A stretch of 64,000 nt of DNA, from IMG/VR virus record IMGVR_UViG_3300029288_000146; one strand, given 5' to 3'. The DNA comes from an uncultured virus (IMG/VR IMGVR_UViG_3300029288_000146) (taxonomy: Duplodnaviria; Heunggongvirae; Uroviricota; Caudoviricetes). The position numbers and the translations under genes are program-made. Every line of letters starts with the position of its first letter. The stretch's first letter is position 1. This document shows, one piece after another, positions 4,772 through 50,994 of this stretch. The notes under the pieces are model-generated. The model searched no databases. It saw nothing but the letters and a program-made list of their open reading frames with translations, and was not told the origin of the DNA.

Positions 4772-4978
4772 TGTCTTTCCCCGGGGTTCAGGTCCCCGCG
4801 CGGCCAGTAGGAAACCGCGCGGGGGCTCCCCCCATTTGAAAACTTCAACTTACACTCGCCAGCGCCGGGTTCTACCGGCTGGTCTTTTAACTTCAGAACA
4901 TACGCCGGGGGTGTGGATTTCCCGGCGGACGGCGTAAGTTACTGGGCATGTTCCCCGGTTACGGGGAAAGGAGAGGAG

Positions 4979-7388: not shown

Positions 7389-7973
7389 ACAAGGCAGCGT
7401 TAAGCAGGCCATACACTTTATATAGCATACACGACAAATTATTGGTGAGCCACGATTTCCGGGGTCTCAACCCGCTGTTTTGGGAGACCTGACTAATAGA
7501 ATATTAGCTTATCTATAATCCATACCCCTCCAAGTACCCGAAACCCCAAGAAATCCTGCTACTTTTCCTTTGCGCGGCCCCCATCCCCATACCATACCCC
7601 AGGAACTCCATAGAGGGCCTACACGGAATCCCGCTGGTATCACCCGGATGTGTGGCCTTTGGAGCCGTGGTGGGGCTGTATGGGGCGCGTGGAGGGTGTG
7701 GAGAGGTGGGTGGGGGTGGAAGAGGTATCGGGGAATCGAAAATGGGGAAAAAAATGTGAGGGGGGATAATCATGCCCCGGCCGGGCGGATTGAATGGTGG
7801 GGGGTAGGGGTGTGGGCTGCCGCGCGGACCGCCAGAATCCCGCCGGAATCCGCGTCGTTTGAGCTTAAAATCAGTCATTTTAGGGCCAAATCACACCTAA
7901 TATATACACAGATTCCAGTTTAGCGGTTATTGAACGCTCAGACCAGGCTGGATGCGGGCTGATCGTGGCCATA

Positions 7974-8037
7974 GGATATGCGGATAAACGAATATATGGA
8001 TATGCGGAAATACGGATAAGCGAACGTGCGGATATGC
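7974..8037 (+). repeat. Eight tandem degenerate 8-mers (consensus GGATAWGC)
   Basis: GGATATGC GGATAAAC GAATATAT GGATATGC GGAAATAC GGATAAGC GAACGTGC GGATATGC. Confidence 0.85.
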
Positions 8038-8347
8038 GGCGAGATGCATATCGTGGCGCTTGGTCAATTCGCTAAATAACGAATTGTTCCCTACTATGTC
8101 CTATCCGCTCTTGTGATTAGCTGCTCTTCCCGCTCTTAGCTTACTGAGCTATGCGCTATCGGGGTTGCGGAGTCGGGGTTAGGGTTTGGCGCACTAGGGG
8201 ATGGTGGCCGTGGGCTGCTAGGGGTTAGGGGATTCCGGCTTAGGGGTTGCCGGCCGCTTGGCCTGGTCAACGGGGTACCGGGAAGCTGATCAGGGTTTAT
8301 GGTTGAAACGAGAATCAATAGAGAATTTCGGTAAATCGGTAAAGGGG

Positions 8348-8375
8348 TTGCGCAAGTATATATATGTGGTACAAT
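8348..8375 (+). promoter_or_regulatory. Sigma70-type early promoter
   Basis: TTGCGC-16-TACAAT with extended TG; near-identical architecture at 11570. Confidence 0.7.
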
Positions 8376-8415
8376 CTCACCGTGAAGTTATGTTTTCAAG
8401 CGGAGAGGTGTAGCA

Positions 8416-8631
8416 ATGGCAAGGTTTAAGATCGGCGACGAAGTTATCTACTCGAACGCGTTTATCGCCAAGCTGAACCCTTATGCTGGCGATTGCGCGA
8501 ACGATAGGGGAGTCGTAACCGAGGTTCAGGATATGAGCAGCGGTAAGCAATACATCAAGGTTCAATGGGATATTGCGGGCGTCAAGGGTGCGCTATCCTC
8601 GAACTTGGCACATTACAGGGGTGTAGCATGA
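8416..8631 (+). CDS. Small SH3/KOW-like early protein
   Basis: FKIGDEV start; GGAGAGGTGTAGCA leader. Confidence 0.65.
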   Translation: MARFKIGDEVIYSNAFIAKLNPYAGDCANDRGVVTEVQDMSSGKQYIKVQWDIAGVKGALSSNLAHYRGVA

Positions 8632-15941: not shown

Positions 15942-16199
15942 GTGACCACCTGGATCAGCACAGCAGAGGCGGCGGGTCTAGCAGGGTGCAGCACGCAGCG
16001 GGTGCGGAAACTCTGCGCTGAGGGTAAGCTGACCTACCGCCGCGAGTTCCGCGACCAATCCCGCCACCGCAACCGCGCCACCCTGTGGATCGACCAGGCG
16101 GCGTTGGTGACGTGGTTGGGGAGTGACCGGCGGATGAGGTACAGCGGGATGTTAAAGATGGGGGAGAGAAAACGGGTAGCCGCAGAGGACGCGAAGTAA
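15942..16199 (+). CDS. Excisionase-like HTH protein
   Basis: ISTAEAAGLAGCSTQRVRKLCAEGKL (HTH_17-like), directly upstream of the recombinases. Confidence 0.75.
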   Translation: MTTWISTAEAAGLAGCSTQRVRKLCAEGKLTYRREFRDQSRHRNRATLWIDQAALVTWLGSDRRMRYSGMLKMGERKRVAAEDAK

Positions 16200-16201
16200 A
16201 A

Positions 16202-17104
16202 ATGCAGCAGAGTTTACAGCCACCCGAGCCACGCAGTATGCGGTTCTACCGCGAGATGTTCGTGCGCGCACACTACCGGCTGACCTCAGCCGAGCAGTTC
16301 GGTAGGCGGGTGCAGCGCTGGGCGGAATCGGGGTTGGACGCGCAGACGTACATCGCTGCGGCTCCGGGTAAGGACGAGTTCAAAGCCAGGCGGGCGGCGA
16401 TTGCCGGATACCTGAAAATACGCGACCTACCGGAACCGCCGAGGAATCCCGCGACCATCCCGGCGCCATCGGAGAGCGACTTGCTTCCGCCCATCCCGAG
16501 GATCATGCCGCCACCGCCGGGGACTCCCACGGCCGAGCAGATGCACGCGTGGTTACGCGCGCTTCAGGGTATCAACCTCACGGCTTACACGTCCGCAGTG
16601 TTGATCTACTCGACGGGTATCCGCGCGGCGGAGTTTGAATCCCTGCGGTTGGACGACCTGCGGCTGGACGACCGCGAGCTACTGGTGCGGGGCAAGGGCG
16701 GGAAAGAGCGGTGGGTGGTGTTTGGGCGCGTGGCGCAGAATGCCCTGCGGTACTACCTGCGGGTGCTGCGGCCCATAGAAGCCGTTGACACTGAGCGGTT
16801 GTTTATCGAGCGCGGGCAGCCCTACACGGCCACGAGGTTACGCGCGGCGCTGCATAAGGCCGCCACGGCAGCCGGGATTACTGAACCCCTGATGATCATT
16901 CACGGCCTGCGGCATGCCTGCGCTACCCACCTGCGCCAGGGTGGTATGAACATCCGCTACATCCAGGCGCTGCTGGGTCACGAATCCCTGGATGAGACCG
17001 CGCGGTATCTACAGTTGACCAAGGAAGAGCTGCGCGCGGAACTTCTGCCCATCCATCCGGGGGAAGATCGCGCGCTCGTGGAGGCCAACGAATGGGTCGT
17101 GTAA
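16202..17104 (+). CDS. Tyrosine recombinase (XerC/D-like) 1
   Basis: TGIRAAE, GKGGKER, HGLRH, LLGH and TARY catalytic set. Confidence 0.92.
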   Translation: MQQSLQPPEPRSMRFYREMFVRAHYRLTSAEQFGRRVQRWAESGLDAQTYIAAAPGKDEFKARRAAIAGYLKIRDLPEPPRNPATIPAPSESDLLPPIPRIMPPPPGTPTAEQMHAWLRALQGINLTAYTSAVLIYSTGIRAAEFESLRLDDLRLDDRELLVRGKGGKERWVVFGRVAQNALRYYLRVLRPIEAVDTERLFIERGQPYTATRLRAALHKAATAAGITEPLMIIHGLRHACATHLRQGGMNIRYIQALLGHESLDETARYLQLTKEELRAELLPIHPGEDRALVEANEWVV

Positions 17105-17691
17105 GTTTCCCCAAGAAGCTCCCGAAAGCACATAAAGAGGATGAAGTCCAGCGGATGCTGGCGCACGCCGACCGGAAGACACCGCAGGGTATTAGGGACC
17201 GCGCGATGCTTGAGATGCTTTACCAAGGGGGACTGCGGGTTAGCGAACTGGCGGATTTGCACGTCGAGGATGTGGAACTGGATGCCCAGCGGGGTCAGTA
17301 CATCATCATCCGGCGGGCGAAGTACGACAGCCAGCGAGAAGTACCGATCACCCGGAGCCTGCTGGTGTGGTTGCAGCGGTATGCGGCAGTGCGCTCACAA
17401 CTCAGCACCAAGGCGCATGAGTGTCCCTACTACTTCATCGGCAAACAGGGTCAGCTCACGCGGCAGTTCATCGGCCAGGTGGCGCGGCAACACGCAAGGG
17501 CTGTGGGCTTGAGCGGGTCGGCTCATGCCCTGCGCCACAGCATCGCAACCCACGTTCTCCGCGCCGGCGGCGACCTCCGCATGGTACAGCGCCTCCTGGG
17601 TCACGTCAGGTTGACATCCACACAGGTCTACACGGCCGTCGAACTCTCCGATCTCAAGAAGGCTTACGATGGCGCTCACCCGCTCGCGTGA
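17092..17691 (+). CDS. Tyrosine recombinase (XerC/D-like) 2, catalytic domain only
   Basis: RDRAMLEMLY.GLRVSEL, HALRHS.ATH, LLGH and TQVY; 199 aa. Confidence 0.9.
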   Translation: MGRVSFPKKLPKAHKEDEVQRMLAHADRKTPQGIRDRAMLEMLYQGGLRVSELADLHVEDVELDAQRGQYIIIRRAKYDSQREVPITRSLLVWLQRYAAVRSQLSTKAHECPYYFIGKQGQLTRQFIGQVARQHARAVGLSGSAHALRHSIATHVLRAGGDLRMVQRLLGHVRLTSTQVYTAVELSDLKKAYDGAHPLA

Positions 17692-35367: not shown

Positions 35368-36087
35368 TTAGGACTCCCCGATGCAGAGCAACGCAGGGTT
35401 CAGGACTCCGCCGTTCTCGTTGGCGACTTCGCCCTCGTTACCATGTTGGGTGTGAATGTTGTGCCAGCGCCGTAGGTCTTCGCCATACCGCCAACATCGC
35501 GCCAATATCCCCACTGCGCACCCGTACATGAAGCCGGTTATCCCGTGGGGTATGTCCGCCATGTGGCTACAACGTTCTGCCACATCTTCGAGTTTGGCTC
35601 CGGTCGCCATTTCCTTCTGCATCAGCTGCGCCCATGTTTCGGCGTAGCCGAAGACGCACCGGCCGTAACCGTCTTTGTTCTTCTCCAGGCCGGTGCGCCA
35701 ATCGTCTGCGTCGCGCAATTCCATCGGTGGCGCCCCGGCGATTGCCGACTCAAACCGGCGCATATCCTCAGCGTGTTTGCGGTCGTATTCAGCTTGCCGC
35801 TCCCGCCGCCGCTTTTCGTTCTCCGCTTCAACCCGCGCATCGTTCTCGCGGTCGGCATCCGTTAGTTCGGCCTCTGGGTATGGACCAACCGGGCCCGGGA
35901 TGTATCCCATCTGCCCGCGTTGCTGATCTCGCCAGATCAGGCTGAGATTGGAGTCGGCATTAACCAACACCACCACGCCATTGATTGTGTCCCGCGCGGT
36001 AAAGCCGCCGATGCGGGCCATTTCCTTCATCTTGTCTAGGCCATCAGAGATGAGCCCGAAACCAGAGTTAACATCCACGATATTCAT
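35368..36087 (-). CDS. Conserved phage hypothetical protein
   Basis: Clean 239-aa ORF with GITGFMYGCAV..L..CW.YGE motif. Confidence 0.65.
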   Translation of the reverse strand: MNIVDVNSGFGLISDGLDKMKEMARIGGFTARDTINGVVVLVNADSNLSLIWRDQQRGQMGYIPGPVGPYPEAELTDADRENDARVEAENEKRRRERQAEYDRKHAEDMRRFESAIAGAPPMELRDADDWRTGLEKNKDGYGRCVFGYAETWAQLMQKEMATGAKLEDVAERCSHMADIPHGITGFMYGCAVGILARCWRYGEDLRRWHNIHTQHGNEGEVANENGGVLNPALLCIGES

Positions 36088-38962: not shown

Positions 38963-39040
38963 ATTGTAACCGGAAATAGAGCATTGTCAAGGTAAAATCC
39001 CAAATTTCCGGTTGACTTTTGCCCGGTTGTGTGGTATTAC
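38963..39040. promoter_or_regulatory. Divergent promoter pair
   Basis: Minus strand TTGACA-16-TACAAT (38990-38963); plus strand TTGACT-17-TATTAC with TGTGG (39012-39040). Confidence 0.75.
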
Positions 39041-39278
39041 GTACTATCACGTACTCGCGTGCTCTTTCGGGGACGCAGGCGTGATATATTTAGAGTATGG
39101 ACAGGACTATTACCCCCCGTGACCACAAACTGGGCTCGCGCCTTACTGGAACTGGTCTGCGCAATGATGCTACTGCGAGCGGCGCGGCGGAAGTCGCGGT
39201 GTTACAATGTCGTGAGACCCGGCGCGTGAGGGTGCCGGTGTTCAGTGGTAGGTTTAAGTGGTGATTGGTGGAGGGCAT

Positions 39279-39854
39279 ATGCGGAACTTAGTGTTGGTAA
39301 TGGCGATGCTGGTGCTGGGAGCGTGCTCGGGTGGGCAAGGGGCCGTGACACTGGAGCCGGGGGAGATCGTGGGTCTGCCCAGCATAGCGGAGTTGGAGCG
39401 GGCGACGATGGGTTACGAGGATGAGCCAGTCAGCGCCTACTATACCTCCGGGTGCGACACGCTGCTGTACGAGGATGGGATACACACGGGTGTTAGGCCG
39501 GTTGGCATGGAAAACATGGTGATTGGCTACGCGACCTATGCTTTCTACCACGATCCCGCCATTCCCCAGGAGCGCTACCAATACGTGACCGCGTATTACC
39601 CCCCAGCCGACGCCGACGCCAAGGGTCAGATTTACATCGGCTTGGCGGACTTCGGCCGTGGGCGCTGGCTGTTCCATAGGGTGTTCCATGACTGGCGCGG
39701 ATATGATACCGGCTGGGATTTGGCGTTCGACATCCGGGAAGCCGAGAATCCCTTCAACGAGTACAACATGCTGTACTACGTGGTGATCGCCTATGGTGAG
39801 GACAGTTACGTGGTTGTGGGTAACGATCCCCACATCGTCCTGGCAGAAGAATAA
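39279..39854 (+). CDS. Lipoprotein
   Basis: Signal peptide with LGAC lipobox, GGAGG RBS. Confidence 0.8.
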   Translation: MRNLVLVMAMLVLGACSGGQGAVTLEPGEIVGLPSIAELERATMGYEDEPVSAYYTSGCDTLLYEDGIHTGVRPVGMENMVIGYATYAFYHDPAIPQERYQYVTAYYPPADADAKGQIYIGLADFGRGRWLFHRVFHDWRGYDTGWDLAFDIREAENPFNEYNMLYYVVIAYGEDSYVVVGNDPHIVLAEE

Positions 39855-39881
39855 GGTAACAAGACTTTGGGAGGCTTTACG

Positions 39882-40286
39882 ATGAGGTTTGTTGTTGTGG
39901 TGTTACTCTTGGCGTGTCTGGTTTCCTGCGGCGGTGGGGGAGGAACACCAGATGAGAACTTCGATCCCACAGGAATTTGGGTGGGTACGCTCGACGGGGT
40001 GGACATCGCCTGGGAGATCGTGGCGCTGGGTGGCGGCTATGGGCTGCGGATGTCCCTGGATTCCGACGAAACAACTATTCCTCTGGTGTTCAATGGTAAG
40101 AACTTCACAGGAACCGAGACGCTTTACTCCCTAGAGGGATACCATCGCCAGGATACTACGGTTGTGGGAACCGTGGATGGGGATTCCATGACCGGCCATA
40201 GCACTCGCATTGAGACGGTCATCGATGGGTCGCACGCGGGGGAAACAGAGACCGATGAAGGGGATTTCACGGCGTCTCGCAGCTAG
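39882..40286 (+). CDS. Lipoprotein (beta-rich, acidic)
   Basis: Signal peptide with LVSC lipobox, TGIWVGT motif. Confidence 0.8.
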   Translation: MRFVVVVLLLACLVSCGGGGGTPDENFDPTGIWVGTLDGVDIAWEIVALGGGYGLRMSLDSDETTIPLVFNGKNFTGTETLYSLEGYHRQDTTVVGTVDGDSMTGHSTRIETVIDGSHAGETETDEGDFTASRS

Positions 40287-40307
40287 GAGTGTTCCACATT
40301 AGGCTAT

Positions 40308-40340
40308 CCCCGGCTCGTCCTTGCACGCGCCGGGGTTTTT
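40308..40340 (+). terminator. Rho-independent terminator
   Basis: CCCCGGC/GCCGGGG stem followed by TTTTT. Confidence 0.75.
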
Positions 40341-40383
40341 AATGCCCCATAAATCCCGAGCGGTGGCCGTATGTTATGTGTTC

Positions 40384-41190
40384 GAGGGCGAGCAACAAGT
40401 TGACGGGGGATGTTCGGCTTACCGGATGATCCCCCGGCCCTCACCATTGAAAGCTGACCTGCCATGTGTAGGAATAGTACGCGGGTCGTCAGCGTAAGTC
40501 TAGGCTAGGACATGAGTTCAGCCTGAGTGCAGCGGGCGGCCCGCGATTTGAAAACATGCGTCCTGATGTATTAGGGGCTTCGCGGGGTGCGCCCAGAAGG
40601 CTATAGGCTACGGCTTGGTCAAAGCACCCCGCTCTTTGAAAACATAACAGTGCTTCCCGGGCTTAGCCTGCTGACGAGCAGTGACGCCGACCAGGGAAGC
40701 CTTATACTGGCGGGCCGTCACCGTGATGCTGCCTAAGAGCGCCCCGAATGGGGTTGCGAGGATTGGCTCACATCGGCGGCCCGTCTTTTGAAAACATGCC
40801 AGTTAGTAGTCGGAACGAAAGCGGTTGCCTGACGGCTTGTGTCCAAGCGCTTTGCCGGTTGTGCGCTGGCAGTATCAACCGGCTTTGAAAACATGTTGTT
40901 GCCAACCAAAACTCAGTACCTTGTTAATGAGGGCGGTGAGGCGACAGCGCCGGAGGGTAAGCCCGTAGGTCACAAGGGATTAGCGGGATAGAGTCCCGGC
41001 GTCCTGAAAGGGGCGGCGATCCGGCGCCGCGAAACCCCAGCCTACCGGAAGTCCTAGGATAACGGGCTGGGGGTGCTTGAAAACATACAGCTCTGATCCT
41101 GGTTCAGTTCCAGGGGTAGGTGCTCACCGGGCCGCCAACCAAGCGAGTTCTGATCAAACCGCGCTGGTGGGAGTAATTCCCCTGGCGGCC
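40384..41190 (+). ncRNA. Putative structured ncRNA array with TTTGAAAACAT linkers
   Basis: About 9 long stems, G-U pairs and a GAAA loop favouring the plus strand, 5 conserved linkers, no credible ORF. Confidence 0.7.
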
Positions 41191-41191
41191 C

Positions 41192-41470
41192 CTACTTCTT
41201 CTTCAGCCGCCGGACTTTCCGCACCATTCCCAGGGGTATTACGTGCGCCTGGCCGAACCGCGCATACCCGCCATTGATGAAGCTCCCACACATCACCAGC
41301 GCCCCTTTGCGCTTCCCCAGCAGTAGCCCCACGCTCCGTACCACGACTGGCTTACCTCGTGCGGCTACGTCCTTTCCCGTCAACCACACGCGGTCTTCCG
41401 GCGGCACCATGTCGTGCGCGTCAACCCATGTCACTTCAACCATTCGCAGCTTAGTCTTCTTCATCTTCAC
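41192..41470 (-). CDS. Small phage protein (VxWxDA..SVGxL..IP family)
   Basis: VEVTWVDA, RSVGLL and VIPLGMV; paralog of the upstream ORF. Confidence 0.7.
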   Translation of the reverse strand: MKMKKTKLRMVEVTWVDAHDMVPPEDRVWLTGKDVAARGKPVVVRSVGLLLGKRKGALVMCGSFINGGYARFGQAHVIPLGMVRKVRRLKKK

Positions 41471-41774
41471 CCTCTTCCCACAGCAGCGCGAGTTTCTTCA
41501 ACCAGGGTACAGGAATCACGGTAACGCTGCGGAACTGGAGCTGCTGTTCTTCGAGCCCGAAGGCGGAATAGTAACCCGTCTCATGGGCGATGGAGATGTA
41601 GCCGGGTTTGTCGGCGGTGGCTTTCTCGTGGCCCACAAGGTAGCCCACTGAGGTCACCAGCGCCGGAGTGATCTTCTCAATGTCGTCCGCAAGGATTGGG
41701 TCTTTGCGGGCCACGGCGTCGTACCATACGGCCTTGACGAGCTGGCCGTCAGGAACCGGGATGTTAATCTTCAT
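41451..41774 (-). CDS. Small phage protein (same family)
   Basis: AVWYDA, TSVGYL and VIPVPWL. Confidence 0.7.
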   Translation of the reverse strand: MKINIPVPDGQLVKAVWYDAVARKDPILADDIEKITPALVTSVGYLVGHEKATADKPGYISIAHETGYYSAFGLEEQQLQFRSVTVIPVPWLKKLALLWEEGEDEED

Positions 41775-43301: not shown

Positions 43302-44552
43302 CTAATCTCCCTCTCCGAATAATTCATTGCTGGTCGCCCAGTTCTCGTCACTGTCGCTGGTGAACACGGCGTCGTATCCCCCATCCGGGTAGATGTGCAT
43401 ACCCACGCCGCCCATCCCCGGCGGTTCGTATCCCGCCTTGTGTGCATACGTACCCCAGAAGCCCAGCATTGCCGGACCAATGACCACGTATTGCTTCTTC
43501 AGCGCCACCCGCAGGTTGGCCTTGTCCTCCACGATGCAAGACACGGCGTTGTCAATGGGGTCGTGGACGTGGAAGCTCACAACGAACTCCACGAAGTCGT
43601 TGAAGATGCGCGGACGGGCAGCGGCGTTATGCTTACCCCCTTTGGTTTGCGAGGCGCTGCGCCCGTGCATGATGTGGGCGCCCCAGTCGTGGCCCTGCCA
43701 GAGCATCCGCAGGCGTAGCGGGAAGTTGAAGTAAGGTACGTTCAGCATCTTCGCCAGGGGCTCAAGGATTTCGACTCCCGCGCGCTTGCTGGTGCGGTCC
43801 TCGTGGTTGCCGCTGTGCAGGAACAGGCACTTGTGGGCTATGGGAGCGAAGAAGTCGAGCATGTCCAACCACTGCTGCTGCGGGTGGTACTGCTGCGAGT
43901 AGATGTAACCACGGCCATCATCTAGGGCGTTCTCCATGAGATCGCCGCCACCGAACCAGTAGACGCCCTCGTGTTCCTCGATGTACCGCAGGGTGGCGCG
44001 GAACTTCTCGTGCAGGTGCGCCTGGTGGCCGTAGTGGGTGTCGGCAATGGGGATGATCTTGATGCGCTCGGTGTGGTCGTGGAATTGCGCGGCCATGTAG
44101 ATAGGGACGCCCGTGCGGGGGTCGGTTTGGAGCGTGCAATCCCAGGCGCGGGGCTGAACACGGGGAACTACATCGGGTTGCCGCAAGAGGATGAAGGTTT
44201 CGTGGCCGTAGTCGTCACGGGTGCGGAATAGCCGAAGGTTCCCGAAGTCACCCGTAAGCATCGCCGTGGCTTCACCCTCACTGCATCCCATCCGCGTGGC
44301 GATTTCCGGTAGTGTCCGCGCGCGGGAAAGGAAGTCCCGCAGGCGGGTGTCCCCAAGATCAGCCGGGGGTTTCCCGGCCGGCAGGGATGCGAGCTTCTGG
44401 CGGACTTGTGAGGCGTTGTAGTGGCCACCAGGGAATCGCTTATTCAGGGCATCGGCTTTGTCGCGGTAGGAACCGCTGAGTGTGGCTAGGTGTGCAAGAA
44501 CTTCTGGCCGCCACTTGTGCGATTGCTCGTACTGGTTAGGCATTGGCGGCAT
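43302..44552 (-). CDS. Calcineurin-like metallophosphoesterase
   Basis: ADTH, GDLME, GNHE, HG and HVH motifs. Confidence 0.85.
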   Translation of the reverse strand: MPPMPNQYEQSHKWRPEVLAHLATLSGSYRDKADALNKRFPGGHYNASQVRQKLASLPAGKPPADLGDTRLRDFLSRARTLPEIATRMGCSEGEATAMLTGDFGNLRLFRTRDDYGHETFILLRQPDVVPRVQPRAWDCTLQTDPRTGVPIYMAAQFHDHTERIKIIPIADTHYGHQAHLHEKFRATLRYIEEHEGVYWFGGGDLMENALDDGRGYIYSQQYHPQQQWLDMLDFFAPIAHKCLFLHSGNHEDRTSKRAGVEILEPLAKMLNVPYFNFPLRLRMLWQGHDWGAHIMHGRSASQTKGGKHNAAARPRIFNDFVEFVVSFHVHDPIDNAVSCIVEDKANLRVALKKQYVVIGPAMLGFWGTYAHKAGYEPPGMGGVGMHIYPDGGYDAVFTSDSDENWATSNELFGEGD

Positions 44553-45171
44553 CCTCGGTCAGAGTGATACTCGTTGACAGGCACCATTCCACGGGCAGTT
44601 GATGTGGGGTTAGGGTTCCACCGGGGCCGATGTTGCTCTGATATGCGCGAGCGGACAGCGCCCCGAATAGCGCCTCCTTGATGTCATAGGTGGGCGATAC
44701 GGCCTTGGTCGCATCCAACACGATCTCGGCGGTATAGCCGCACTTAACGGCGTCCCGGTAGGTTGCCATCACGCAGTAATCCAGCGCGACCCCGCAGATG
44801 TACAGATGTGTGTCACGGGGCAGGATGGAGCGCAGTTCGGGCGTGAATCCGCTGTATTGCTCCGCTGCGGGATCGGTTCCCTTGTCGATAACGGTTGAGC
44901 CAGGGGGAACCGGAAGGAAGTCGTTGATCCTCGCGCCGCTCGTTTCTGCTATGCAGTGCGTGGGCCATTGCCCGCCGTTTTCGATGAAGCTGCAATGATC
45001 CGCCGGGTGCCAGTCCCGCGTGAAGACGACGGGTTGTTGCGCGCGCCGGAATCCATTGATCAGCGCGTTAATAAGGGGCGGCAGGGTGTAAGCGTAGGGG
45101 ACGTATAACGCACCACCAGGATACACAAAGTCGTTCTGCATATCCACGACTATCAGTGCCGACTTAGGCAT
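44536..45171 (-). CDS. pncA: Nicotinamidase
   Basis: VDMQNDF..GGAL, TRDWHP..HCSF, WPTHC, KG...YSGF and ALDYCV. Confidence 0.92.
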   Translation of the reverse strand: MPKSALIVVDMQNDFVYPGGALYVPYAYTLPPLINALINGFRRAQQPVVFTRDWHPADHCSFIENGGQWPTHCIAETSGARINDFLPVPPGSTVIDKGTDPAAEQYSGFTPELRSILPRDTHLYICGVALDYCVMATYRDAVKCGYTAEIVLDATKAVSPTYDIKEALFGALSARAYQSNIGPGGTLTPHQLPVEWCLSTSITLTEDAANA

Positions 45172-46492
45172 GCGGCATGCTCCTTTTCATCTCTTCCACC
45201 TGCGGACTCGCGGTGCAGTAGTGAGCGGTTGCCGATTGTTCCAGCGACAACTGCAAGGCCGTGTATTCGCGGATGCCGGAGAGCGTCGGGCGCGAGCAGC
45301 ACAACTCGCCGCGAGAGAACACGGGAACCAGGAGGTCGTGTTCGGAATTGAGCGGCGTTTCGGACGCCATACGGATGGTGTCGTAAATGATGGTGCCTAC
45401 ATGCCGCGTCAAACGGTGAGCGCCTGGTAGGGTACCCTTCCCCGGCGCTGAGGCGTGGGTCTTGCAGCGGGGGTGTCCGTCGATTTCCACGAGCTTGTAA
45501 ACCCCGCCCAGCGCCGCATCGGGCGCGCCAGTAACCAGACGGGTTCCCACACCCCAGCCATCAATGGGGAGATCGCGCATGGCGGCAATGCTGGTCTCGT
45601 CCAAGTCGCTGGAAGCCAGAATGACACCATCAGTCCAACCGGCGTCGTTCATGGCCGTCCGGGCGAAGCACGCCAACTCCGGTAACTGCGATCTCTCGGC
45701 ATCCAACCGGATACCGCCGCCCACCAGACCGTATTTGATCTTGGTTGCGACGGCTCGCTCGATACCCCGCCGCGCGTCATAGGTATCCACGAGCAGGATG
45801 CAGCGCTGCGGGTAAATGAAGGCGTAGTTGTCGAACGCCCCTTGCTCGCTCGCGTGGCTCATCACCCACGAATGCGCCATGGTGCCGGCCGTGGGGATAC
45901 CCCAGCGCAGTCCGGCGAGTTCGTTGGATGTACCAGCGCACCCCGCGAGATATGCCGCCCGCGCAGCCAGCACGGACGCCTCTACTCCATGTGCGCGGCG
46001 CATGCCGAAGTCATAAACTGGCTTGCCCTCCGCCGCCAAGACGCAACGGGCGGCTTTGGTGGCGATAAGCGTCTGGAAATTGATCGTGGTCAGAATTACC
46101 GTCTCTAATAGCTGACATTGGAGGAGAGGCCCACCGACCTTGACCAATGGGGCCATGGGCTGGACAACGGTTCCTTCGGGAACCGCCTCGATGTTGCACG
46201 TTAAGCGTAGTCCGGCGAGATAATCCAGGAAACCGCTAGAGAACATCCCCGATTCCGACAAATAACGGAGTTCTTCATCGCCAAACCGTAGATCGCTCAA
46301 GTGCTCAATGAGTGTGTCCAGCCCCGCCGCAACCGTGAAATGTCCACCAAAGGGATTCCGGCGGAAGAACATCTCGAATATGGCAGGGGTCTCGTGCATT
46401 CCGCTCGCAAAGTAACCGTTCGCCATGGTGAGTTGGTAATGATCAGTAGCGAGCCAAGAAGATGTGGGGTTAGGCATTCGGCTCTCCGCCAC
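45164..46492 (-). CDS. pncB: Nicotinate phosphoribosyltransferase
   Basis: TDHYQLTM, FEMFFR, DFGMRRAHG, GTMAHSWV, LVDTYD, GVGTRL and VYKLVE. Confidence 0.92.
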   Translation of the reverse strand: MAESRMPNPTSSWLATDHYQLTMANGYFASGMHETPAIFEMFFRRNPFGGHFTVAAGLDTLIEHLSDLRFGDEELRYLSESGMFSSGFLDYLAGLRLTCNIEAVPEGTVVQPMAPLVKVGGPLLQCQLLETVILTTINFQTLIATKAARCVLAAEGKPVYDFGMRRAHGVEASVLAARAAYLAGCAGTSNELAGLRWGIPTAGTMAHSWVMSHASEQGAFDNYAFIYPQRCILLVDTYDARRGIERAVATKIKYGLVGGGIRLDAERSQLPELACFARTAMNDAGWTDGVILASSDLDETSIAAMRDLPIDGWGVGTRLVTGAPDAALGGVYKLVEIDGHPRCKTHASAPGKGTLPGAHRLTRHVGTIIYDTIRMASETPLNSEHDLLVPVFSRGELCCSRPTLSGIREYTALQLSLEQSATAHYCTASPQVEEMKRSMPHA

Positions 46493-46791
46493 CAGTCACG
46501 ATCAGCGGACTCCTCGCGGGTTCCGGTGTCCCTTCCTGTCCCTTTCCGTTGATGAGTCCTGGTGCCAGTTGGTTGAGCCAGCCCAGCAGGACATTCACCA
46601 GGAAGTCGTGTACCAGGGGCTGGCCGATGTGCTGCATGGTCAATCCGGCGGTTGCCAGCAGGTGGGCGCGTTGGCCCTCGGACAGGGCATCCCAGGTCAC
46701 GGGAAGTACATGGGTGGTGTCGTACTTCACGCGTTCGGAGTAGGCGTGCCAGATTTGGGCGAGGCCAAGCGCGGTGACGATGGGTGGGGTT

Positions 46792-47436
46792 TCAGTGTCC
46801 ATGGTTACGCTCCACAAAGTCGCAGTGTTTGATTTTGGTGATGATCCGCTTCCCGCGCCGGTCGCACAGTTCCCGTTGTGGACGCGCTACGATGCCCTCA
46901 GCGACGAAGTTGCCCCACTGCGATACAAACCCCTCGCGCACTAGCTTGATGCCGTCCAGCAGCCCCCCAGCGCCGATTACGGGGACAACGCCCACGCCCA
47001 GCGCCTCGCCAATCGCGGCGACGTTCTCCCGTTCCAACCAAAGGCCGCCCACTGACACATCAAAGAGAGCGAAGTCGCAGCCATTGGGGTTGTAGTTGCC
47101 CCCGCCCTTCTGGATGCGCGCGCCGTAACCCTCTCCGTACAGCACGGCTTCGGAGCTGCTGAAGATGCTGTGGTTGGCGGCGGCGGGGGCTTCAAAGAGA
47201 TCGCGCAGGCGGTCGAGCAGGAAGGTGGGAATCGAGGCGTTATCAGTCCGTCCGCCGTAGTGGACACGCTCGCCATCCCAGATGATGCGGATGTTGGTTC
47301 CGTCCACCTTCTCAGTGAACACCCAATCGTTTTCCGCGAGATAGGCAAACTCCGGGGTCGTGTACTCGCCCTCGATGATCTGCCGGGTCTCGGGGTCGCG
47401 CTTGAACACCGTCTGGATTTTGTGGTATTCAGTCAC
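46792..47436 (-). CDS. RNA ligase (Rnl2-like nucleotidyltransferase domain)
   Basis: YHKI, TEKVDGTN, LYGE, LFDV, EGIV and KIK. Confidence 0.85.
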   Translation of the reverse strand: MTEYHKIQTVFKRDPETRQIIEGEYTTPEFAYLAENDWVFTEKVDGTNIRIIWDGERVHYGGRTDNASIPTFLLDRLRDLFEAPAAANHSIFSSSEAVLYGEGYGARIQKGGGNYNPNGCDFALFDVSVGGLWLERENVAAIGEALGVGVVPVIGAGGLLDGIKLVREGFVSQWGNFVAEGIVARPQRELCDRRGKRIITKIKHCDFVERNHGH

Positions 47437-48025
47437 GCTTCAGCTCCTTGTAATCTCTCGCCGTGAAGTCGTAAAGCACGAGATTGTTGTATTTGCCGTT
47501 CGCCCAGGCGGCATCGCGGTAAACGCCCTCGTAGCACCATCCGGCGTTGCGCAGAAAACTACATCCGCGAGTATCCCAATCATGGAGTCCGCAGTGCAGG
47601 GTGTGGAGGTTGTGCTGGCCGAATGCTTCATCCATGAGCAGGCGCAGGGCTTCGCGGCCGTAACCGTGATGCTGGTGCGCGGGTGCGATGTAGAGGCTGA
47701 GTTCGGCGCGGCGCAGATGCCAGTCGATGTAACAGAAGCCGCCAACGCCGACGGGCATAGTGTGGTGTACTATTCTCGACTCCCTGCCCGCCATTGGCAG
47801 AATTTCCACATCCCCCCAGACGAGGTACAGCAGTTGCCGTGGCGGCTTAGCCAGCGAATCATCCAGGTAGCGCTCCCACCATGCCATCTGGTGCTCGGGG
47901 CCGATGAGGCGGTGTTCGCGGCAGTAGGGACGCAAGAGGTTGCGCCAGTGGGAAAGGGTGTCGATGATGAGGTCATCAGACGGGTGGGCGGAGAGGGGCT
48001 CGATGGTGACAGTGGGGGTGGGCAT
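47429..48025 (-). CDS. GNAT acetyltransferase (RimL/PseH-like)
   Basis: AELSLYI...HQHHGYGREAL, GW..EG..R. Confidence 0.85.
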   Translation of the reverse strand: MPTPTVTIEPLSAHPSDDLIIDTLSHWRNLLRPYCREHRLIGPEHQMAWWERYLDDSLAKPPRQLLYLVWGDVEILPMAGRESRIVHHTMPVGVGGFCYIDWHLRRAELSLYIAPAHQHHGYGREALRLLMDEAFGQHNLHTLHCGLHDWDTRGCSFLRNAGWCYEGVYRDAAWANGKYNNLVLYDFTARDYKELKRD

Positions 48026-50352: not shown

Positions 50353-50994
50353 CTAGCCGTTCAACTCCTCTTCGGCTGTGGGCTCCCATAGCTCATCAAT
50401 GGACACCCGGGGGATGAACTGCTCAAGCGCGGATTCCGAGAGTGTCACGACTCGTGTACCGCGCGCCGCAACCCAGCGCAGGAGAATGCCGAAGCTCTGC
50501 ATCTGTCCCCAAGGCCGCTCGCTTTCCCCCGTTGGGCTCCCGTCAAAGTGCCTGGGTCCGCGCATGTCCACACCCGCCAGTGCCACACAGCGGACGCCCG
50601 CGTGATGCAGCAAGAGGATCATGCAACCGGCAATGGTGGCTCCACCGGCGAGTTTCCGGGGTTCGTCCAGGCCACCACCGTAGATACCCTTGCCGTGGTA
50701 GAAGATGTAATCGGGTGTGTAACGCTTCTGGGCTTCGGCCAGCAGGTAGCCCATGAGGAGCTTCTGGGGGACGCAGTGGGGGTCTTGAAACCAGGGTTCG
50801 GTACGCGCCTTGAGTCCCCATGTGGCCCAGAGGTTCGCGCGCGGGTGCGCCCAGATGGCTCCGTTAATGGCGATGGAGTACCACGCATCGGGAATCTGCG
50901 ATTCCACATCCAGTACATGCGGGCCGCTGCCCACGACCACGCTAACAGGGGTCGTGCCTAGTTCATGCAGGTGGTCGAAGACATCGTTAGACAT
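50353..50994 (-). CDS. Maf/MptE (DUF115)-like protein
   Basis: VVGSGP, IAING and ALAGVDM..HF. Confidence 0.65.
   Translation of the reverse strand: MSNDVFDHLHELGTTPVSVVVGSGPHVLDVESQIPDAWYSIAINGAIWAHPRANLWATWGLKARTEPWFQDPHCVPQKLLMGYLLAEAQKRYTPDYIFYHGKGIYGGGLDEPRKLAGGATIAGCMILLLHHAGVRCVALAGVDMRGPRHFDGSPTGESERPWGQMQSFGILLRWVAARGTRVVTLSESALEQFIPRVSIDELWEPTAEEELNG

Follow-up and report, generated by a model that had tools for sequence, protein, structure and literature searches.

What occupies the 905 nucleotides (nt) between two convergent genes at positions 40287-41191 of the uncultured Caudoviricetes record IMGVR_UViG_3300029288_000146, whose whole stretch of 64,000 nt is the window analyzed here, and what might such a gap do for the phage? 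The original prediction described most of it as an array of different long RNA hairpins, punctuated by a conserved linker and lacking any credible open reading frame (ORF). Codon-usage log-odds, trained on 14 window genes, agree with the latter point, since the flanking genes score positive and every short ORF inside the gap scores negative; the linker array as a whole, with its copies, its stems and its strand bias, is confirmed. The gap contains at least eight different hairpin modules, most of them closed by a GC-rich stem, that are joined by an invariant spacer. It is likely that this array is a real, plus-strand structured RNA; as a tentative reading, held with less than even confidence, it would be a modular RNA whose open linkers act as repeated antisense seeds against the 5' leader of an early operon.

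The linker word, the 10-mer TTGAAAACAT, is present in five exact copies (40548, 40636, 40788, 40885, and 41077), all on the plus strand and within 540 nt; base composition leads to an estimate of about 0.03 additional exact copies expected by chance on both strands, and outside the array, only one exact copy exists in the 64 kb, at 8390-8399 in reverse complement. Written as 11-mers of the form (U/C)UUGAAAACAU, the linkers occupy 40547-40557, 40635-40645, 40787-40797, 40884-40894, and 41076-41086; a degenerate linker, ATTGAAAGCT, is found at 40446-40455, and its complement occurs elsewhere at chance level only. All of these positions match the predicted ones. With up to one mismatch allowed, TTGAAAACAT has nine matches in the window against 1.69 expected, a number reached in none of 100 shuffles. 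The spacers are 79-96% unpaired in the structural ensemble, which is no better than in shuffled sequences because the spacers are AU-rich. Two simpler roles for the linker were discarded: its TTGAAA is not followed at the proper distance by a -10 element in any unit, as a -35 promoter element would be, and small ORFs starting from a linker ATG would be limited to three of the five linkers, have no Shine-Dalgarno sequence and show negative coding scores. The resemblances to boxA, to Cas6-type repeat ends and to ToxN cut sites that had been proposed for the linker are weak. GCUCUUU, the most conserved part of boxA, precedes linker 2 only (CGCUCUUU), while the other four linkers have GCGAUUU, GUCUUUU, CGGCUUU, and GGUGCUU at this position, and the invariance lies in UUGAAAACAU instead; Cas6-type repeats require uniform hairpins, which the array does not have; and no toxin gene follows on the plus strand. 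As a separate observation, the divergent intergenic region 4772-4912 contains a GC hairpin with 10 perfect base pairs (4795-4824) ahead of ATTTGAAAACTT (4835-4846), and a second hairpin (4861-4884) with a tail that includes TTCAGAACAT (4892-4901); these hairpins have the stem-plus-tail layout of the array, and their tails differ from the linker by one and two mismatches.

The units between the linkers, designated A to G, were folded singly against 200 shuffles each, and the whole region against 20 shuffles per strand. Unit A (40384-40455; z -4.94) is the hairpin GAGGGC...GCCCTC followed by the degenerate linker. A small leader hairpin in the unit fold, CCUGC-CAUGU-GUAGG (40458-40472), precedes hairpin B, whose 11-bp basal stem with two U-G pairs leads to linker 1 (40480-40557; z -4.49). 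Unit C (40558-40645; z -1.62) consists of a small 5' hairpin, the hairpin GCGGGGTGC/GCACCCCGC (40582-40632) and linker 2; unit D (40646-40797; z -3.4) of the hairpins D1 (40652-40700) and D2 (40709-40785), the latter a paralog of B, and linker 3; unit E (40798-40894; z -0.49) of a 5' hairpin, the hairpin GCCGGTTG/CAACCGGC (40854-40883) and linker 4; and unit F (40895-41086; z -2.84) of three sub-hairpins, the last being CCCCAGCCT/GGGCTGGGG (41035-41073), and linker 5. Unit G (z -2.6) begins with G1 (41089-41124), a look-alike of a tRNA top half in which an acceptor-like stem is stacked on the T-arm-like CCUGG-UUCAGUU-CCAGG, and ends with the terminal hairpin G2, GGGCCGCCA/TGGCGGCCC (41129-41191), the third member of the B/D2 family, located directly next to the stop codon in which the convergent gene 41192-41470 ends. 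These features all refer to the plus strand, and every stem listed in the original prediction exists in the sequence and in the minimum free energy (MFE) structure.

Folding of both strands favors the plus strand. The whole region has a z-score of -4.65 on the plus strand as opposed to -2.16 on the minus strand, the minus strand is weaker in six of the seven units, and 41 coding control segments average z -0.03. The stems of B, D2 and F contain U-G pairs that would be A-C mismatches on the other strand; together, these results fit the plus-strand structured RNA that had been proposed. The proposal that each linker copy sits at the 3' foot of a stem holds above chance for the feet of B, C, D, and F, but not for that of E: the 10 nt 5' of the linker are paired with probabilities of 1.0, 0.90, 0.98, and 0.86 in the former and 0.79 in the latter, and the observed foot pairing was matched by 0, 0, 0, and 2 per 100 shuffles, respectively, versus 21 for E. 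The stems end 1-3 nt ahead of the spacer. Hairpins B (40480-40545), D2 and G2 have a common basal stem, CGGG(U/C)CG(U/C)CA...GGCGGCCC(G/C), beneath unrelated tops; U and C alternate opposite G, and the outermost C-G pair of B is G-C in D2. Such changes are few, but they would fit an RNA-type rather than a DNA-type constraint. This common basal stem, the shuffling of modules and the complement in the early leader had not been reported in the original prediction.

It is very improbable that the region is an ordinary insulator, in which unrelated terminator or stabilizer hairpins separate convergent operons and local duplication left the 10-mer behind as a relic. The gap does lie between convergent operons, G2 adjoins the stop codon of the leftward gene, and the stability of C and E does not exceed chance; yet a duplication relic would not keep ten perfect letters amid complete divergence, near-identical modules occur in other habitats, and the hairpins have no U-tracts on either strand, the one terminator-like site being located upstream of the array.

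The modules are exchangeable cassettes, reordered among relatives with the spacer kept, since relatives carry them with different neighbors and linker variants. The whole region was recovered from one landfill run only, probably its source, whereas single modules with 94-100% identity are found in two groundwater metagenomes (runs X2 and X3), where neighbors and linker variants differ and most of the region has no coverage. In record 3 of X2, 40633-40717 (spacer 2 and D1, one difference) is joined to 96 unrelated letters, followed by 40885-40985 (spacer 4 and the start of F, six differences), with D2 and E replaced; in record 4 of X2, 40993-41085 is present without difference and continues into a new module starting with CAGCAGGCGGCAGGTCGGTA; and in record 5 of X3, 66 identical nt of unit E (40817-40882) are followed by ATTGAAAATAT and the same new module, CAGCAGGCGGCAGGTCGGTA. 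Record 2 of X2 has a promoter-like sequence on the plus strand, TGTGGTATAAT, directly 5' of the homolog of 40452-40485; its promoter type matches the window sites 8365-8375 and 39030-39040. The spacer variants in these relatives are ATTGAAAATAT and TTGAAAACAC, and the modules are joined close to the spacer or at it. In X2, the three listed substitutions (40685, 40934, and 40939) all fall on unpaired positions of the unit MFE structures; the chance of this outcome is about 0.06, an estimate that takes approximately 40% of the positions as unpaired.

The new module in X2 and X3, of which 30 letters were seen, has the same first 21-24 nt as a tRNA-like element from L215, an unrelated IMG/VR phage with nothing else in common with the window. 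This element (2440-2672 of L215), called by neither ARAGORN nor Rfam, is preceded by a hairpin and includes a 6-bp stem with the loop CUCAUAA, of the CAU anticodon type, and the T-arm CUGAG-UUCAACU-CUCAG; it ends with an encoded C-CCA that is followed by AATTTGAAGG.

The homolog search thus produced module pieces in X2 and X3, but no full-length relative. GenBank phages, searched by DNA with the region and its 22-kb context, gave no match. A two-linker pattern found 99 loci in IMG/VR, of which 26 passed a filter (GC content above 0.45 or more than two motif copies); the eight inspected had a GC content of at least about 0.49, and each proved to be a coding repeat, an iteron-like repeat or a chance match. 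The three flanking proteins had two distant matches in IMG/VR (27% identity) for one of them and none for the others; the module patterns for the F-end and for D1 had no IMG/VR matches, and that for the B-family stem plus linker had one unrelated locus (L214). In the JGI metagenomes, the F-end plus linker pattern gave only a chance match inside a bacterial gene (L102). Two linkers 80-110 nt apart were found at 91 GTDB loci, of which 11 were inspected without revealing a relative; most GTDB matches result from reverse-strand coding repeats, dockerin/EF-hand-like, that carry the reverse complement of the 10-mer. In L109, L130, L144, L154, L184, and similar GTDB loci, it recurs every ~99 nt; these coding repeats, from the FCB group and other bacteria, encode on the reverse strand a dockerin/EF-hand-like motif that ends in ...NYVFKGGP. 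An apparent enrichment of the 11-mer in two of the four genomes searched by way of such loci, G001 (25 vs. 3) and G003 (29 vs. 5), was discarded after 20 contexts in G001 turned out to be mostly unrelated or coding. Literature searches by the motif letters returned primers only, and the titles and opening parts of abstracts on anti-defense or structured phage RNAs mention no such array. A different kind of punctuated repeat was seen in two metagenome-assembled genomes, one from the PVC group (L161, 1477-1790) and one from the Chthoniobacterales (L150, 1501-1720): tandem non-coding units of ~92-99 nt end in (C/T)TTGAAAACA(T/C), and in L161, a promoter-like site (TTGACG-17-TACGCT) precedes them and a strong terminator-like hairpin follows. 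These units share the punctuation word of the array, but they are near-identical among themselves.

If modules move, they could do so as DNA, and mobile or recombining cassettes – small non-autonomous elements, PATE/MITE-like or integron-cassette-like, inserted beside or recombined at the 10-bp core – would account for five perfect cores with different modules on either side, and for module orders in X2 and X3 that differ with breakpoints at the core; the two adjacent tyrosine-recombinase genes at 16238-17691 could be counted in favor as well. The modules themselves do not look the part: they have neither terminal inverted repeats nor common end sequences, the 5' half of the stem usually stands apart from the preceding core (leaders of 24-55 nt in B, C, and E), and one breakpoint (40717) is off the core. 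In integron attC sites, the inverse core RYYYAAC at the 5' foot pairs with GTTRRRY at the 3' foot; here, the spacer is outside the stem and no 5' foot carries its complement, the inverse core that attC requires. No further module copies, as REP/BIME or MITE dispersal would leave, were found within the 64-kb window, and the scanned ORFs include no Y1/HUH transposase. Mobility as DNA cassettes is therefore regarded as highly improbable.

The single exact counterpart of the linker outside the array provides the link to a possible function. The reverse-complement box belongs to the 5' leader of gene 8416-8631, with which a long rightward block begins; this block reaches as far as the excisionase-like and integrase genes at 15.9-17.7 kb. 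The early rightward promoter is marked by the extended -10 element TGTGGTACAAT (8365-8375; TGg-TACAAT at 8367-8375) with the -35 element TTGCGC (8348-8353); the anti-linker box GTTATGTTTTCAAGC follows at 8387-8401 on the plus strand, approximately +5 to +19, directly before the Shine-Dalgarno sequence GGAGAGG (8402-8408) and the ATG at 8416. To this box, linkers 2 and 5 both form a 13-nt perfect complement; each extends the match on a different side, which makes the box resemble the complement of a consensus, GCUUGAAAACAUAAC. Duplex energies between the five spacer windows and 109 start regions (each -45 to +15) place the early start region at rank 1 (-19.4 kcal/mol, z -3.8), and the early leader is unstructured (z +1.26). 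The 15-mer box family has four matches against 0.67 expected, a number reached by one of 100 shuffles; among them, at the 5' edge of the array, is GTTATGTGTTCGAGG (40373-40387, plus strand), a degenerate anti-linker box with three mismatches to the leader box. This degenerate box pairs with linker 2 in the MFE structure and keeps 14 of the 15 pairs, since two of the three differences still pair (G-U or C-G). The start regions of the rightward block have a feature of their own, a common motif GGTGTAGCNATG (plus strand; 8407, 10238, 10720, and 11945) that has eight matches at up to one mismatch versus 1.06 expected, and eight were reached in none of 100 shuffles.

A sequence at this position, at +5 to +19 of an early promoter, could also be read as DNA. 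The 10-mer TTGAAAACAT would then be an asymmetric operator of a phage regulator, with one copy repressing the early promoter, the five copies in the gap forming a reservoir or second control region, and the hairpins acting as terminators. The reverse exact copy does occupy a classic operator position, the P1 C1 operators are likewise asymmetric and dispersed, terminators are expected in a gap between convergent operons, and unrelated GC-rich IMG/VR phage contigs (L009/L071, L048, and L093) carry the 10-mer in iteron-like direct repeats. What makes an operator cluster improbable is the array itself, where five irregularly spaced copies (88-192 bp) share one orientation and each occupy the foot of an RNA-type stem with U-G pairs, an arrangement that a DNA site would not require, and where the modules between the sites are kept at 94-100% identity in spite of reshuffling, as the spacer DNA between operators would not be. 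In addition, the degenerate box at 40373 has two mismatches in the 10-bp core and yet retains RNA pairing, and the early promoter has neither a dyad nor clustered operators.

In the antisense reading, the spacer would be the working part, displayed five times between rigid hairpins as a seed for pairing with the box AUGUUUUCAA, extended to GUUAUGUUUUCAAGC, which is nearly the whole 5' leader of the early operon; the hairpins would stabilize the RNA and keep the seeds open. Pairing up to the Shine-Dalgarno sequence could block translation, or trigger cleavage or termination of the early message. That the promoter-like sequence in X2 directly heads a module is counted in favor of this reading. 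In the window, the sigma-70-like promoter TTGACT-17-TGgTATTAC (39012-39040, plus strand) lies upstream of the array, with a TGTGGTA-type extended -10 as in the early promoter and in the promoter-like end in X2; it drives a small rightward operon that runs toward the array and is closed by a terminator-like hairpin of the intrinsic type, CCCCGGCTCGT/ACGCGCCGGGG followed by T5 (40308-40345, plus strand). Expression might come from read-through of 40308-40345, from the promoter at 39012, or from an unrecognized promoter.

Several points weigh against antisense seeds. No sigma-70-like promoter was found between the terminator at 40308-40345 and unit A, and expression would therefore need the read-through or unrecognized promoter just mentioned; among the sequencing runs that contain the region, none is an RNA run that could provide transcript evidence. 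Units C and E are not individually more stable than their shuffles, and five different scaffolds are unneeded merely to display a seed. The second-best start region already reaches -17.0 kcal/mol, and perfect 13-nt matches between array and window are common by chance (six such matches, E 0.67 each), so that the argument is based on the rarity and placement of an AU-rich word; the complementarity rests on one site, and its rarity and placement were judged after the fact. A DNA operator at +5 to +19 would be an equally good role for the sequence at 8387-8401. Finally, the GenBank phages, IMG/VR, JGI metagenomes and GTDB genomes searched contain no full-length relative. The sequence itself establishes the anatomy, the strand bias, the non-coding status, the shuffling of cassettes and the complementarity; as neither transcript data nor a full-length relative turned up, we infer the transcription of the array RNA, its pairing in vivo and its regulatory outcome. 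As a feature, the array is real, strand-specific and without an explanation in any library, and the functional case, built on one genome and fragments, is indirect.

Does the array belong to a described RNA or repeat family? The original prediction had recognized none, and this impression stands: over the whole window, Rfam 15 gave no match at gathering score, and its covariance models remained without a match in 40200-41400 at E-values up to 10, which covers GOLLD, ROOL, C4, tRNA, riboswitches, ribozymes, CsrB/Rsm and Y RNA; default ARAGORN found no tRNA or tmRNA in the window, which speaks against a tRNA gene cluster. At a threshold of 95%, ARAGORN proposed one sub-threshold cloverleaf (41040-41123) that uses the G1 arm and turns linker 5 into an 8-nt anticodon loop; it was rejected as a unit, as X2 joins its 5' half to a different downstream module. 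Look-alikes of hammerheads, K-turns, and C/D boxes (CUGA eight times by hand count) were dropped for want of Rfam support. The array is not a CRISPR array, a solitary-repeat Racr or a ToxI-type antitoxin, as the original prediction had stated for CRISPR and ToxI, because only 10-12 nt are common to units of 88-192 nt. CRISPR arrays have repeats of ~24-40 nt with a uniform hairpin, whereas the longest common block here is 12 nt (25 nt at 72-88% for three copies) and the stems differ; in ToxI, near-identical repeats of 34-45 nt stand in tandem ahead of a same-strand toxin gene, whereas the units here are mutually unlike and the next gene is convergent. TIGR-Tas systems have short, regular repeat-spacer units and a nearby Nop-domain Tas gene; the units here are irregular, and the 54 ORFs scanned with Pfam include no Nop-domain match.

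In a stable-RNA operon, a polycistronic precursor would contain separate small structured RNAs, including tRNA-like ones, the spacer would have the role of a processing or binding site (in the context of RNase P, E or Z, of a Cas6/Cas5d-like nuclease, of Hfq or of Nus factors), and the leader match would be a coincidence. The original prediction, which is supported in part, had offered a precursor cut into diverse small RNAs or a multivalent protein sponge; cutting at the linker and protein sponging are both conjectural. The spacer is indeed AU-rich, open and placed at the 3' foot of stable stems; in X2 and X3, it is directly followed by a module that starts like the tRNA-like element of L215, G1 resembles the top half of a tRNA, and the common basal stem of B, D2, and G2 could be a protein or RNase III site. 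There is precedent, since the T4 tRNA cluster includes stable RNAs, and RNase P excises both the P1 c4 and the P4 CI RNA. However, the default ARAGORN and Rfam results (the latter at E 10) are negative, the scanned neighbors include no nuclease or RNA-binding family, and the module in X2 and X3 is known from 30 letters only. Broad-specificity RNases would need no ten invariant letters, and cutting inside the spacer would leave the exact complement at 8387-8401 unexplained. On balance, such an operon appears somewhat unlikely.

Compared to known phage stable RNA and tRNA-like operons (T4 species 1/2, the dicF precursor), the array is similarly a string of different folded RNAs, probably in one precursor, and its relatives have a tRNA-like module after the spacer, as the array itself has the look-alike G1; the window, however, is without a bona fide tRNA, and to our knowledge, the units of such operons are not separated by a conserved 10-nt spacer. 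The CsrB/RsmZ sponges are also multi-hairpin RNAs that present one short motif many times, but the motif of the array is placed between hairpins and not in loops, is not GGA, and yields no Rfam match. REP/BIME mosaics share palindromic units, conserved linkers and a location in gaps between convergent genes, but the units of the array are unique in the window, much longer and strand-asymmetric. The end AUUGAAA(C/G) is known from CRISPR repeats, and the tail of the array resembles it except for an extra A. With variable units and a conserved element between them, the array recalls CRISPR arrays as well as the RNA anti-CRISPRs known as Racr (PMC10651486). The likeness extends to a GC stem followed by an A-rich tail and to anti-defense genes nearby (Tad4, NAD salvage, RNA ligase), but 10-12 nt are conserved here in place of 24-40-nt repeats, hairpins and unit sizes differ, and no cas gene was seen in the window.

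The closest functional parallel is found in the RNAs c4 of P1/P7 and CI of P4 (RF01695), which are characterized by a'/b' pairing, the elements seqA, seqB and seqC, and processing by RNase P. The array meets them in its complementarity to a leader and ribosome-binding site (13-nt duplexes with 8387-8401, rank 1 of 109), but does not show their family fold of ~70-80 nt, and RF01695 has no match at E 10. Both c4 and P4 CI are small structured RNAs with short leader or ribosome-binding-site complementarity that hold down the early or antirepressor functions of a same-strand operon, and the 10-15-nt seed of the array matches an early leader beside the Shine-Dalgarno sequence. Full repression of P1 ant requires the C4 antisense RNA (PMC8198154). 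The differences are substantial: the seed lies in open linkers instead of a loop, it occurs in five copies, its scaffolds vary and can be exchanged, and the predicted target is 32 kb away and not in its own operon. The array would therefore work like c4 and P4 CI without being a family member, as there is no Rfam match at E 10.

Carried one step further, the antisense reading would amount to a new class of regulatory RNA in phages, in which exchangeable hairpins form a chain with many copies of an antisense seed; expressed from the prophage, this chain would silence the phage's own early operon as well as those of homo-immune phages. Such multivalent RNA immunity, with scaffolds that are swapped between phages and may carry extra functions, for example as tRNA-like decoys, is a speculative and rather unlikely extension. 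Phage non-coding RNAs are badly under-described, and the known cases of RNA-based phage immunity (P1 c4, P4 CI) use a single small RNA. If antisense seeds are at work, seed and leader should show compensatory mutations, and the spacer variant of a relative (e.g., AUUGAAAAUAU) should be mirrored in its own early leader (predicted as AUAUUUUCAAU). The design principle would be one invariant seed repeated between interchangeable structured modules, and RNA modules, not genes, would be the units exchanged between phages. If the rival explanations hold, the locus would still be an undescribed stable-RNA operon or operator cluster.

The genomic context is that of a temperate phage. The window has no close relative among GenBank phages; it carries DnaB, a beta-clamp-like gene, a methylase, two tyrosine recombinases and excisionase-like genes; the recombinases are two adjacent plus-strand ORFs that match tyrosine-recombinase (integrase) profiles, with an excisionase-like gene upstream at 15942-16199. 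Upstream of the array, the operon behind the promoter at 39012-39040 consists of two moron-like orphan genes on the plus strand (39258-39854 and 39867-40286) that have signal-peptide or lipoprotein N-termini, one translation showing an LVSC lipobox; their only database matches are themselves, and neither belongs to a Pfam or PHROG family. No gene follows the array on the plus strand, where the ORF 41274-41651 has a coding score of 0.003; a leftward operon ends at 41192, 3' of the array. The two small minus-strand genes next to this end (41192-41774) have no family in Pfam or PHROGs and are weak paralogs of each other (29% identity over 62 residues, pairwise E 4e-4).

The wider neighborhood has an anti-defense and nicotinamide adenine dinucleotide (NAD) salvage look, judging by the predicted genes on the minus strand. 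Within 5-7 kb of the array are a Tad4-domain gene (35368-36087) and, at 44536-46492, an isochorismatase-family (nicotinamidase-like) gene with a nicotinate phosphoribosyltransferase; the nearest Atlas clusters of the latter are commonest in Actinomycetota, which is not evidence of the host. An RNA-ligase-family gene (46792-47436) and a GNAT acetyltransferase gene complete the minus-strand block 44536-48025. In such surroundings, a counter-defense role of some modules is possible. Two segments of the array resemble distant minus-strand genes: 40713-40731 is identical at 18 of 19 positions to the plus-strand sequence at 47656-47674, inside the GNAT gene (E 0.043), and 40585-40602 at 17 of 18 positions to that at 50843-50860, inside gene 50353-50994 (E 0.17). 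As the identity is with the plus strand, the array RNA would be antisense to both mRNAs, at E-values that are both near chance. At the other end of the window, a gene-free stretch of nearly 1 kb ahead of the early promoter (7389-8363) contains G-rich and C-rich tracts and direct repeats of the ATATGCGGATA type (~7975-8045), and is a candidate origin, attP or control region.

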